Assembly (NCBI GenBank): GCA_946408355.1
Contig: CAMJRX010000005.1
Coordinates: 11,568 to 75,567, forward strand
Length of the DNA: 64,000 bases
DNA from: an uncultured Selenomonadales bacterium
GTDB lineage: Bacteria; Bacillota; Negativicutes; Selenomonadales; Selenomonadaceae
Direction of reading: 5' to 3'
A program made the translations under genes and the position numbers. The notes beneath the pieces were generated by a model. That model was given only the letters and a program-made list of their open reading frames with translations, ran no database searches and was not told the origin of the DNA. Positions 42,444-44,930 of the stretch are shown in pieces (position 1 is the stretch's first letter; the number at the start of each line of letters is the position of its first letter).

Positions 42444-43322
42444 TTACAGCAGACGATTTCCATTGTCGAAGTCGTATAAACTTTCCGCCTCGTCGATTAT
42501 TTCTTCTAATTCAGCCCGCGCAGAATATTTTTTCATGTTGCGCCAGAAATTTTCCCTGTGAACCACTACCGAACGTATGAATGCCGCCGCATAATCAGAA
42601 AAAATTCCTTTCGCGTCGAATAATCGCCAAAAATTTGCTACGTTTTCTTCTGTTGCAATGTCATATTCGATTCGGTGTAAAATTCTCGATAATTCTGCGC
42701 GGATTTCGGGTGTGAACATCGATTTTAACAGCGCGAGTTCCGGCATCGACCGTGACGCACGCACTAACCAGAATTCCGTTTGTAAATCGTCGTCAAAATT
42801 GTCGAATCCGCAATTTATCAGTCGCTCAAGCAATTCCGGCGGCGAATTTTTTTTCAACGGCAAAACTTGCACTTCTTTATAAAAAGAGGCGTATAAAAGT
42901 CGCTCAAATTCCGTTCGCGTGTACAATCTCGACACTATTCCGCCAAATGCCCCGCGCATTAGCCGTTCTAATATTTTCCAGTGCCGGATATTTCTAAAAC
43001 TCGTCAGCCAACAGCCCGTTTGCTTTAAAAATGTCGAAAATCCCGCCGCAATGTCTTGAGGATTCGTTACGACTTCCAAAGTTAAATCGCCGATTATTAA
43101 ATCGAAAAATTCTTTCGGAAATGGCAAGCATTCCTCGCGATAATCCAAATAAATTGTGTTCGGATATTTTAAATCTTCGTTTGAAGTTACAAAAAAAATT
43201 TCAGACGCCGGAAATTTCTCGCGCAACGGCTCAATGTACGCAAAACTTTCCACAACCAATATTTTCTCGAAAAAATCTTCTCCTGATATAAATTCTGTTA
43301 AACTAGGCTTAATTTCTTCCAT
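42444..43322 (-). CDS. Hypothetical protein (possible degenerate methyltransferase-like fold)
   Basis: ATG 43322 lies 6 nt after AGGAGA. FDLIIGDLTLEVV is reminiscent of post-motif-II methyltransferase regions, but I saw no GxGxG. Confidence 0.5.
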   Translation of the reverse strand: MEEIKPSLTEFISGEDFFEKILVVESFAYIEPLREKFPASEIFFVTSNEDLKYPNTIYLDYREECLPFPKEFFDLIIGDLTLEVVTNPQDIAAGFSTFLKQTGCWLTSFRNIRHWKILERLMRGAFGGIVSRLYTRTEFERLLYASFYKEVQVLPLKKNSPPELLERLINCGFDNFDDDLQTEFWLVRASRSMPELALLKSMFTPEIRAELSRILHRIEYDIATEENVANFWRLFDAKGIFSDYAAAFIRSVVVHRENFWRNMKKYSARAELEEIIDEAESLYDFDNGNRLL

Positions 43323-43353
43323 AAATTTTTCTCCTATCATTAATTTTTAATTG

Positions 43354-43381
43354 AAAAACCCTTCGACTCGCCGCCGAAGGG
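43354..43381 (-). terminator. Terminator after brnA (copy 1 of the repeated terminator module)
   Basis: On the minus strand, CCCUUCG-GCGGCGAGU-CGAAGGG followed by a U-run. Confidence 0.65.
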
Positions 43382-43387
43382 CTTTTT

Positions 43388-43576
43388 TTAACTTGCTACG
43401 TTCTGTTTTTGTTTACGGAGCCGCGCTGGTCTAAATTTTGATAATTCTTCCTTTGTCATGCGCGGTATATCGCTAAAATCTATGTCGTCGTCGGATTTTG
43501 GCTTATTTTCTTCTAACCTGCGAATTTGTTCTTCTGTCAACGGCGGCATTCCCTTATAAATTCGGATACTGCCCAT
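43388..43576 (-). CDS. brnA: BrnA-family antitoxin
   Basis: DDDIDFSDIPRMTKEEL..F is typical of BrnA. ATG 43576 lies 8 nt after GAGGAGGA. It overlaps the end of brnT. Confidence 0.75.
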   Translation of the reverse strand: MGSIRIYKGMPPLTEEQIRRLEENKPKSDDDIDFSDIPRMTKEELSKFRPARLRKQKQNVAS

Positions 43577-43856
43577 AATATTCGTCCTCCTCTTCTTTAG
43601 TCGCATATCGCGCTGATATTATTCGATACTTTTCAACTCGTTCTGTGTATATTACTGCCAAAATATTTTTAACTTTACCTATTACTTTCCAACGTTCCTC
43701 GTAATCGCTGTGAATTTCATCATAATTTTCTATTCTGTAATCGTCAAGAAAGATATATGCGGCATCTTCAAAATAAATCTTATGTTTTTTCCAATTTAAC
43801 TCGGCTTTGTTGTCGTCCCACTCAACTATATACTCGCCAACTTCTATTTCCCCCAT
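43554..43856 (-). CDS. brnT: BrnT-family toxin (DUF497 ribonuclease)
   Basis: EWDDNKAELNWKKHKIYFEDAAYIFLD...RIISARYATKEE matches the BrnT signature (FEWD..KA..N..KHG..FE.A..VF.D ... IISAR.A...E). Confidence 0.8.
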   Translation of the reverse strand: MGEIEVGEYIVEWDDNKAELNWKKHKIYFEDAAYIFLDDYRIENYDEIHSDYEERWKVIGKVKNILAVIYTERVEKYRIISARYATKEEEDEYYGQYPNL

Positions 43857-43875
43857 AAAATCATCTCCGAACGCG

Positions 43876-43904
43876 ATTTTAGCAAAAAAATTTCATTCAG
43901 TCAA
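43876..43904 (-). promoter_or_regulatory. brnTA promoter (copy 1 of the repeated promoter module)
   Basis: On the minus strand: TTGACT (43904-43899), a 17-nt spacer, TAAAAT (43881-43876), with an extended -10 TGC. Confidence 0.55.
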
Positions 43905-43907
43905 CGA

Positions 43908-43935
43908 AAAAACCCTCCGACGCGCCGCCGAAGGG
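43908..43935 (-). terminator. Terminator after the GG-leader peptide gene (copy 2 of the terminator module)
   Basis: On the minus strand, CCCUUCG-GCGGCGCGU-CGGAGGG followed by a U-run. It is near-identical to the hairpin at 43354-43381. Confidence 0.65.
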
Positions 43936-43965
43936 CTTTTTGGTTGCTTGCGTTGAAATATTTTT

Positions 43966-44145
43966 TTATTTTCCAATCTCGAATTTGAATAATTTATTAG
44001 GATGAAACTCAGTACCTATACCTGATATACTGTCAAAATCCACAAGTTTCCCAGTTTTTCCGCCCGTAACCTTTTCGAGTTCCTCGTCGCTCAATTTTTC
44101 GAGTTCAGCATTGATTTTCTTGATGTTTTCTTCGCGTGTTTCCAT
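43966..44145 (-). CDS. Double-glycine-leader peptide precursor (bacteriocin or signalling-peptide-like), 59 aa
   Basis: METREENIKKINAELEKLSDEELEKVTGG | KTGKLVDFDSISGIGTEFHPNKLFKFEIGK. LSDEELEKVTGG fits the LSxxELxxIxGG leader consensus. ATG 44145 lies 9 nt after GGAG. The longer track ORF starts at a TTG inside the promoter -35 box. Confidence 0.6.
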   Translation of the reverse strand: METREENIKKINAELEKLSDEELEKVTGGKTGKLVDFDSISGIGTEFHPNKLFKFEIGK

Positions 44146-44206
44146 TTCTATCATCTCCAAATTGTTTTCTGTAGATTTATACGCAAGAATTACGATTTCG
44201 TTACAT

Positions 44207-44235
44207 ACTTTAGCAAAAAATTTTTCTTCCGTCAA
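44207..44235 (-). promoter_or_regulatory. Promoter of the GG-leader peptide gene (copy 2 of the promoter module)
   Basis: On the minus strand: TTGACG (44235-44230), a 17-nt spacer, TAAAGT (44212-44207). Confidence 0.5.
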
Positions 44236-44246
44236 CGAATTGCGAT

Positions 44247-44930
44247 TTAAATTTCCGGATTAAGTTCTGCGCCGTATTCTTGCAAGAAAATTTTCTGATA
44301 GCGGCGATATTTTGGGTCAAGCGGCTTTTCTTTCGGGCAATGTATGCACCAAAAATCTTTTTCTTGATTGGGAATCGCAACTTTATAACCTGCGCGGCTC
44401 ATTTCCTTACAAAGCGAAGTATCGTAAAGGTGCCAGCCGTCAAATAAGTCCTCGCGCCAGTGCAAATCGTATTGAGTCGCCAAAAATAATCCGTCAACCG
44501 ACTCAACAACTTGATAATCGCCGTCAGGCTCGTTGCAATGCGAATCAACGACGCTTTCCGGCTCACAAGCGTGCAAAACTCGCCCGTAAGGTCGCATTCC
44601 GTCCCACCAAACGCCCGTCGACGGCAAATTTACGCAACCAATCATTCCTACGACGCCAATAGACTTATCAGCGAAAATTTTAAGCAAATCGGCGATTAAA
44701 TTCTTATTTACAACGAAAGTATCTTGGTGCAAATAAATTTTATACTTTGCGTTGGACGATTTCATTGCGCGATTATAGCCTGAAGTCATAGATTTTGCGT
44801 CGCGAATATCAATAAATTCTGCAGTCATATTTTCGGGGATTTTTAAATGTTTAAGATACAAAATGCATTCTGAATACCAATAATCGCTATTTACGCAGGT
44901 TATAAACGCAATTTTTTTATCATCAAGCAA
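44247..44930 (-). CDS. Glycosyltransferase-like protein (GT2-related family)
   Basis: KIAFITCVN...GYNRAM..S.AKYKIYLHQD resembles the stand-alone GT-A fold family. Confidence 0.6.
   Translation of the reverse strand: MLDDKKIAFITCVNSDYWYSECILYLKHLKIPENMTAEFIDIRDAKSMTSGYNRAMKSSNAKYKIYLHQDTFVVNKNLIADLLKIFADKSIGVVGMIGCVNLPSTGVWWDGMRPYGRVLHACEPESVVDSHCNEPDGDYQVVESVDGLFLATQYDLHWREDLFDGWHLYDTSLCKEMSRAGYKVAIPNQEKDFWCIHCPKEKPLDPKYRRYQKIFLQEYGAELNPEI

Follow-up and report, generated by a model that had tools for sequence, protein, structure and literature searches.

A stand-alone gene for a double-glycine-leader peptide in a Quinella-like rumen bacterium, probably served by an exporter encoded on other contigs

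A gene for an exported peptide that stands apart from any export machinery raises the question of how its product leaves the cell, what switches the gene on, and on whom the peptide acts. The gene considered here occupies positions 43966-44145 on the minus strand of a 64,000-nucleotide stretch of DNA (the window), part of contig C5 of a Quinella-like Selenomonadaceae metagenome-assembled genome (MAG; 2.45 Mb in 85 contigs, 84% complete). Quinella is abundant in the rumen and, to our knowledge, has never been cultured; we know of nothing reported on its competition or communication. An earlier reading of the window from its letters (the sequence-only reading) had called the gene a precursor with a double-glycine (GG) leader, and our analysis confirms that it is a genuine gene of this kind. 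Beyond that, the gene is probably a stand-alone cargo cassette, the unmodified product of which is exported by an ATP-binding cassette (ABC) transporter with a built-in peptidase (PCAT). The elements of the cassette are listed below; MATREEN denotes the leader family, which opens with M-A/E-T-R-E-E-N in at least 40 homologs.

43966-44145, minus strand: precursor coding sequence including the stop codon, 59 residues, METREENIKKINAELEKLSDEELEKVTGG then KTGKLVDFDSISGIGTEFHPNKLFKFEIGK
44059-44145, minus strand: double-glycine leader METREENIKKINAELEKLSDEELEKVTGG, 29 residues, hydrophobic at -4, -7, -12 and -15, with E at -8
43969-44058, minus strand: core KTGKLVDFDSISGIGTEFHPNKLFKFEIGK, 30 residues
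44155-44158, minus strand: Shine-Dalgarno sequence GGAG, 9 nt upstream of the ATG (44143-44145), kept in the paralog alignment
44177-44205, minus strand: bipartite motif TGTAAC-N16-CGTATAA, its 3' end 31 nt before the ATG
44207-44235, minus strand: sigma-70-like promoter TTGACG-17-TGcTAAAGT, TG-extended, conserved in most MATREEN-family cassettes
43903-43941, minus strand: intrinsic terminator, hairpin CCCTTCGG...CGGAGGG (43907-43941) plus a U run

The leader ends in KVTGG (residues 25-29) and places L18, E22, L23 and V26 at positions -12, -8, -7 and -4 from the GG site, with L15 at -15. Leu-12, Glu-8, Leu-7 and Val-4 are the residues named for leader recognition by ComA and LahT (PMC6363468), and all of the recognition residues given there are present in the window leader. 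The sequence-only reading had picked out the same positions by eye; in line with it, the NCBIfam model of the bacteriocin-type signal, TIGR01847, scores the precursor above its cut-off (16.8 versus 15.7 bits). In an AlphaFold2 (AF2) prediction the leader forms two helices (residues 4-17 and 20-26; predicted local distance difference test, pLDDT, 76-80), and the core is disordered (pLDDT below 50). The predicted mature peptide has a mass of 3353.8 Da, an isoelectric point of 8.4 and a grand average of hydropathy (GRAVY) of -0.33. Its core had been described as free of cysteine, and we counted no cysteine, two serines, two threonines and five lysines. The ribosome-binding site (RBS) had likewise been read correctly as GGAG, 9 nt from the ATG.

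A word-index search over 5.8 billion protein clusters returned two kinds of relatives. Five (P0002-P0006) share the core, at 72-93% identity, and 38 share the leader only, each with a different core. The GG pair, whose conservation among homologs the sequence-only reading had proposed as a check, is kept in all 44 database relatives. In each of the four relatives with recoverable DNA, the gene lies at the same chromosomal site, directly 3' of the same glycosyltransferase-like gene (GT2_5). In a survey of the family with each species represented by a single genome, 45 of the 75 species of the genus carry the leader, in up to 20 copies per genome, and this recurrence puts the gene far beyond chance. 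Outside the genus the leader was found in five genomes only, in the rest of the family. Relatives of the neighboring glycosyltransferase-like gene come from Selenomonadaceae and Quinella sp. MAGs of sheep, goat, deer and buffalo rumen, and one protein, P0076, carries the name Quinella sp. 2Q5. By these comparisons the leader appears specific to Quinella-like rumen Selenomonadaceae, and its cargo appears hypervariable.

The window core was found in no surveyed species genome other than the window's own and is known only from this one site, in a few rumen metagenomes. When searched alone against 1.84 billion representative proteins, it gave five matches (E = 9e-10 to 5e-5) that we judged not to be homology, because their scores are inflated by repetition: the matches are eukaryotic LisH/CTLH and beta-propeller (DUF5122, Rax2, NHL) repeat units. 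The precursor matched no sequence in the PDB, and literature searches for bacteriocins or peptides of the double-glycine kind turned up nothing specific to Selenomonas or Quinella. Two metagenome proteins, P0007 and P0008, carry two tandem leaders, each ending in GG, followed by one core, an arrangement that suggests two cleavage products.

The sequence-only reading had seen no exporter in the window and would have given up its call had the genome held no PCAT. We found no C39 transporter on the window's contig either; an intact PCAT is encoded on contig C21, and the call stands. This 744-residue protein (C21:27183-29417) has a C39 domain that scores 112 bits and keeps the active-site cysteine (ECG), histidine (NHF) and aspartate (NDP), and it is an equivalog match to TIGR03796 (977 bits, cut-off 853). 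Next on C21 come a 904-residue second ABC subunit, ABC2 (TIGR03797, 729 bits), and an outer-membrane factor (OEP) of the TolC kind, and the matching HlyD pair lies on C12 (TIGR03794, 222 bits). All three models, TIGR03794, TIGR03796 and TIGR03797, score above cut-off. By these matches, the genome encodes a complete NHLM-type exporter on contigs other than the peptide's. Two further ABC proteins with C39-like domains, on C4, were ruled out as the exporter: the catalytic cysteine is missing, and they stand with HlyD in an RTX-type type 1 secretion system locus.

Orthologs of the C21 PCAT at more than 60% identity occur in about 60 of the 76 genomes of the genus, and in three related species the leader family lies within or next to the exporter operon. 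In G146 a 63-residue MATREEN peptide is encoded within the exporter operon, in the order HlyD, HlyD, PCAT, MATREEN peptide, ABC2, extracytoplasmic function (ECF) sigma factor and TolC. A family member adjoins PCAT, ABC2 and the sigma gene in G134, and several members lie 3.4-4.5 kb from the exporter operon in G144; taken together, members in these two genomes come within 0.1-4 kb of it.

Upon alignment of six MATREEN paralogs of the window genome, the modular build of the cassette became visible: terminator, sigma-70-like boxes, a short 5' region, leader and terminator are common to them, and the cargo alone varies. The sequence-only reading had given the gene a terminator, and the hairpin at 43907-43941 with its U run bears this out. 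It folds at -26.9 kcal/mol (z = -4.9), no shuffled sequence folded as well, and a scan for simple terminator patterns had left it unlisted. The hairpin sequence CCCTTCGG...CGGAGGG occurs in nine copies in the genome, all at GG-peptide cassettes or at an inserted brnTA pair described below.

The promoter claimed by the sequence-only reading is present as the sigma-70-like boxes; the element common to all GG genes, however, is a different one, located just downstream. In this conserved 5' region two blocks are fixed and the 16 bases between them vary. The resulting motif, TGTAAC-N16-CGTATAA, ends 29-31 nt before most start codons. It has one exact copy in the window (0.07 expected), and the genome has 11 strict copies where base composition predicts 0.12, all of the latter at GG-leader or associated genes. 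Under a looser definition, 14 of 16 matches lie upstream of such genes: ten GG-leader genes of four leader types, two genes for proteins with Sec signals on C27, and two 63-residue genes beside the ECF sigma gene on C21. The Bacillus sigma-W and sigma-X promoters read TGAAAC/TGTAAC-N16-17-CGTA, and the motif resembles them in having two short blocks at a fixed spacing. It is most simply read as the -35/-10 pair of an ECF-sigma promoter. The sigma-70-like promoter may then serve as an upstream element or supply a basal level of transcription. A riboswitch or attenuator in the 5' untranslated region was also considered and dropped in favor of the promoter reading, as no significant folding is predicted there (z = -0.3) and scanning 43300-44400 against Rfam gave sub-threshold noise only.

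Comparison across species points to the same sigma factor. Related genomes carry either this motif (type A; among them G146, G144 and G126, at loci L061, L062 and L064) or TGTCAT-N16-CATATA (type B; G093, G119 and G096, at L017, L021 and L065), and the type is uniform within each genome. An ortholog of the C21 sigma factor, at 72-80% identity, is present in each of the four type A genomes examined, and the five genomes of type B or other types have sigma homologs at 52% or less, bar one partial match at 63%. The motif type thus appears to track the ECF sigma ortholog across species, which we regard as supporting evidence for the assignment, not as proof.

All ten GG-leader genes of the genome, which represent four leader types, belong to this set. 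Five further copies of the MATREEN leader are clustered on C27, where four precede cargos of about 95 residues and one precedes a hydrophilic core of 29 residues:

C27:8493-11982 (L004): array of five MATREEN-leader genes, the 29-residue core being FYARYNGG...IIHWTA

The other three leader types account for the remaining four GG-leader genes, on C3, C9, C16 and C18. Within the C27 array, two proteins of about 145 residues with Sec signals are encoded under the same promoter and terminator modules; they match no Pfam or NCBIfam family and are candidate periplasmic immunity proteins. The domain of about 95 residues (TxxQTAxDSxFL...GWxKxGI...NxYYLxGxxISR) is alpha/beta and specific to rumen Selenomonadaceae. 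Its AF2 model is of moderate confidence (pLDDT 70) and matched no PDB fold at E <1, so this cargo family gives no hint of a toxin. A PDB sequence search with the 95-residue cargo of a paralog returned designed toroid repeat proteins only, which we dismissed. The short cores of the MATREEN leader family, by comparison, are hydrophilic, near neutral and free of cysteine, with GRAVY values from -0.2 to -1.1.

These observations can be assembled into a proposed path from gene to exported peptide. Transcription would start mainly from TGTAAC-N16-CGTATAA, driven by the ECF sigma factor encoded beside the C21 PCAT, which would place the window gene in one regulon with a dozen or so further small proteins and exported peptides. 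The PCAT (TIGR03796) would receive the helical leader in its C39 domain and cut it after Gly29. The linear, unmodified 30-mer (about 3354 Da) would then cross both membranes of this diderm Firmicute, leaving through PCAT/ABC2, HlyD and TolC. If so, the exported peptides of the Quinella group form a sizeable repertoire that varies between species and is handled by an NHLM-type exporter and, it appears, by a single dedicated sigma factor, and the leader, C39 domain, promoter and sigma factor form a parts list for heterologous tests.

Several points weigh against this account, and against the function that we propose below. The peptide gene, the PCAT and the HlyD pair lie on three separate contigs (C5, C21 and C12), which leaves their pairing inferred, and a second NHLM system at C3:1-3500, partly assembled, could be the true exporter. 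In five genomes with leader genes we detected no close PCAT ortholog; most of these genomes are incomplete, and one is 98% complete. The ECF reading of the motif draws on its architecture, on its distribution and on its co-variation with the sigma factor in 10 genomes, which are few, related and non-independent; alternatively, the motif could serve as an operator, placed downstream of the sigma-70-like promoter. As to function, most membrane-active class II bacteriocins differ from this hydrophilic, near-neutral core, and the core is nearly unique, which precludes selection statistics. No immunity-type gene stands beside the peptide, an absence that the sequence-only reading had remarked on: the neighbors are GT2_5 and BrnT/BrnA, and no gene for a small membrane or periplasmic protein is among them.

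The C3 locus is cut by the contig end (C3:1-2374) and holds the tail of an ABC2, an ECF sigma gene and three Nif11-leader precursors with Cys-rich cores. These true Nif11 peptides of the window genome (C3:1224-2374) have the type A motif at none of their genes. Long-leader precursors of the Nif11/NHLP group (TIGR03798/TIGR03793) go with the NHLM export cassette, as reported by Haft et al. (2010) in the citation of PMC6363468. The window system resembles them in the family of its exporter (TIGR03794/96/97) and in having precursors with a conserved leader and hypervariable cores that are scattered from the transporter. By contrast, the window leader stays below the cut-off of the Nif11-type model TIGR03798 (15.4 versus 32.3 bits, with only the last 25 positions aligned), and it comes without cysteine and without tailoring enzymes. 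This lack of cysteine and of tailoring enzymes makes an unmodified product probable. On family models and gene context, we would place the gene among the double-glycine PCAT substrates, in none of the narrower families.

What the exported peptide does is a separate and harder matter. We tentatively favor, as a possibility, that it acts on other bacteria in the manner of a class II microcin, and that it does so through a receptor rather than by forming pores. A pore mechanism is unlikely because the family's other short cores are equally hydrophilic. Antagonism is suggested by the replacement of the core at one site at the strain level, by the multi-copy arrays, and by the two co-regulated, Sec-exported candidate immunity proteins. 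Class II microcins of Gram-negative bacteria, such as microcin V with CvaAB/TolC, have been surveyed (PMC12219008, PMC9746304). With these and with the bacteroidetocins the window system shares, as predicted from its genes, a small unmodified ribosomal peptide with an N-terminal double-glycine signal; a PCAT, membrane-fusion protein and TolC-type channel in a diderm cell, here scattered over contigs; and the use of one signal for many sequence-diverse cargos. It differs from class II microcins in its leader of 29 residues (versus 15-19), in its hydrophilic, near-neutral core, and in its exporter, an NHLM-type one that pairs the PCAT with a second ABC subunit and has its genes on other contigs. 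A dedicated immunity gene would also be expected next to a microcin gene and is absent at the window locus. A term search found no mention of Negativicutes in the microcin survey of 2025 (PMC12219008); the system described here would extend microcin-like systems to the diderm Firmicutes.

The main alternative, which we consider unlikely, is that the mature 30-mer is no weapon but a secreted pheromone from which the producer population would read its cell density or the activity of the exporter. Short, hydrophilic, near-neutral cores without cysteine do resemble pheromones more than pore-formers, and the gene has no adjacent immunity gene and falls within a sigma-factor regulon. The Gram-positive GG pheromones (ComC/ComAB, BlpC/BlpAB; PMC7595303) indeed share with it the logic of the leader, processing by a PCAT, and a short unmodified hydrophilic peptide. 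There are also differences. The window gene has no adjacent pair of histidine kinase and LytTR regulator, and neither a sensor kinase nor a receptor is encoded beside it or beside the other short-core genes; the genome's sole LytTR gene lies at C9:35813, far from any GG gene. The promoter in use appears to be of the ECF type, there is an outer membrane to cross, and the ComC model PF03047 scores the precursor at 12.7 bits, under its cut-off of 20.4. The core is restricted to strains, and in sister species the same site carries unrelated ones instead, a pattern that suits polymorphic antagonism better than a shared signal.

The regulation of the gene has a parallel elsewhere. In the actinomycete clusters for microbisporicin (MibX/MibW) and planosporicin (PspX/PspW), both of them RiPPs (peptides made by the ribosome and modified after translation), an ECF sigma factor drives the precursor genes. 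The two systems are alike in encoding the ECF sigma factor with export or biosynthesis genes and in giving the precursor a dedicated promoter. Here, however, the targets are a dozen unlinked single genes, and no classical anti-sigma factor is visible; instead, two leader-like peptides of 63 residues are encoded beside the sigma gene:

C21:33649-34202 (L005:15650-16203), minus strand: two tandem 63-residue genes directly downstream of the ECF sigma gene, MTIEDRFEQTDFSQFSKIKDSLLFRLKLRRR...SLDELDQVAAA followed by GNPNIKTDVNKYPPR

Each of the two genes has its own TGTAAC-N16-CGTATAA, and a homolog stands beside the sigma gene in G146. The proteins may be sigma partners that the exporter cleaves. 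A bolder and decidedly speculative extension is an export-coupled circuit, in which these proteins, with their leader-like cleavage tag (...SLDELDQVAAA|G...), would restrain the ECF sigma factor until the exporter cuts or expels them, much as with FlgM, releasing sigma onto a dozen cassettes. Were this true, cargo would be made only while the pump works, and the specificities of sigma factor and promoter would co-evolve, as in types A and B.

It is improbable, in our judgment, that the gene is an evolutionary by-product, a leader-promoter module joined to arbitrary sequence whose product has no selected function. Such a view draws on the lack of credible core relatives beyond the gene's own site, on the predicted disorder of the core, and on the behavior of the alleles. 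In P0006 the C-terminal half of the core has been reshaped by indels. The allele L011 (P0004; L011:3221-3376) carries a 24-nt in-frame deletion in the leader that leaves the frame open. This deletion lies between direct repeats and removes the eight leader residues LSDEELEK, with them L-12. The variant may be export-defective. Among close alleles, divergence is 10-16% in the leader, 1% in the core and 0-7% in the flanks, a mosaicism of the leader that looks like gene conversion from paralogous leaders. The same alleles also speak for a maintained gene. In all five the frame is open, and no indel shifts it, including the +3, +6 and -15 nt changes in the core of L147. Close alleles differ in the core by one substitution and the distant allele by indels, and at 72% overall identity the core still keeps its N-terminal motif TGKLxDF(G)DSxSGIxTE and its C-terminal GK. 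The full set of expression signals is intact as well.

The sequence-only reading had suggested, as speculation, that the two adjacent genes modify the peptide, in which case it would be a RiPP precursor whose serines, threonines or lysines are glycosylated or acetylated by GT2_5 and a GNAT enzyme before export. Both genes are real by domain match, the first with the following details:

44247-44930, minus strand: GT2_5, glycosyltransferase-like (PF13712 Glyco_tranf_2_5, E = 2e-82)

The genes are adjacent and co-oriented with the precursor, and its core offers two serines, two threonines and five lysines as possible acceptors; we nevertheless find the proposal very improbable. GT2_5 is present in 70 of the 76 genomes of the genus, including all 19 of high quality, and is 62-72% identical in cultured Selenomonas species that have no such peptide. 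A GG peptide lies within 1.5 kb downstream of it in only three of 29 sister species, where the cores are all different and the leader is partly so; by a count over 29 species, 25 have none downstream of it and the remaining four carry unrelated cores. Between GT2_5 and the peptide gene, which is preceded by a promoter of its own, stand the GT2_5 stop codon and about 100 nt, and enzymes of this kind are absent from the surroundings of the paralogous C27 cassettes. Because GT2_5 is core to the genus and the peptide is found at the site in few genomes, the enzymes are not its tailoring enzymes, and the site is a cassette hotspot. We read GT2_5 and GNAT as core housekeeping genes unrelated to the peptide.

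Finally, that the true product is an 89-residue protein started at TTG 44235, with an incidental GG motif, is hardly credible: the longer open reading frame (ORF) is open, and the region upstream of the ATG is open in frame in some relatives too, but the TTG (44233-44235) is the first triplet of the TTGACG box (44230-44235), transcripts from either candidate promoter would begin downstream of it, the upstream "residues" are conserved promoter DNA read as protein, the ATG at 44145 is the start that the RBS serves, and the homologs begin with M-A/E-T-R-E-E-N. The sequence-only reading had located this TTG inside the -35 box, as we do, and automated ORF callers would likely mis-start the gene. 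The lesson for annotation is that such cassettes, which ORF callers miss or mis-start, are found reliably by the promoter motif, leader and terminator together.

On its other side, the unmodified-peptide cassette that we favor is bordered by a toxin-antitoxin insert built with modules of the same kind:

43876-43904, minus strand: second sigma-70-like promoter module, driving brnT, without TGTAAC/CGTATAA
43554-43856, minus strand: brnT (PF04365, E = 6e-24)
43388-43576, minus strand: brnA-like antitoxin; the brnTA cassette spans 43388-43856
43354-43386, minus strand: duplicate terminator hairpin after brnA, -21 kcal/mol, z = -4.7

The spot downstream of GT2_5 thus appears to be one at which peptide cassettes and BrnTA are swapped by recombination at shared promoter and terminator modules. 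The brnTA insert lies between the peptide terminator and the next gene, and it is missing in L011, where the peptide gene abuts a gene for a 292-residue protein. The ancestral next gene in the window (42444-43340, minus strand) encodes a 298-residue protein that is conserved at the site and has a faint methyltransferase-like match (E = 0.04).

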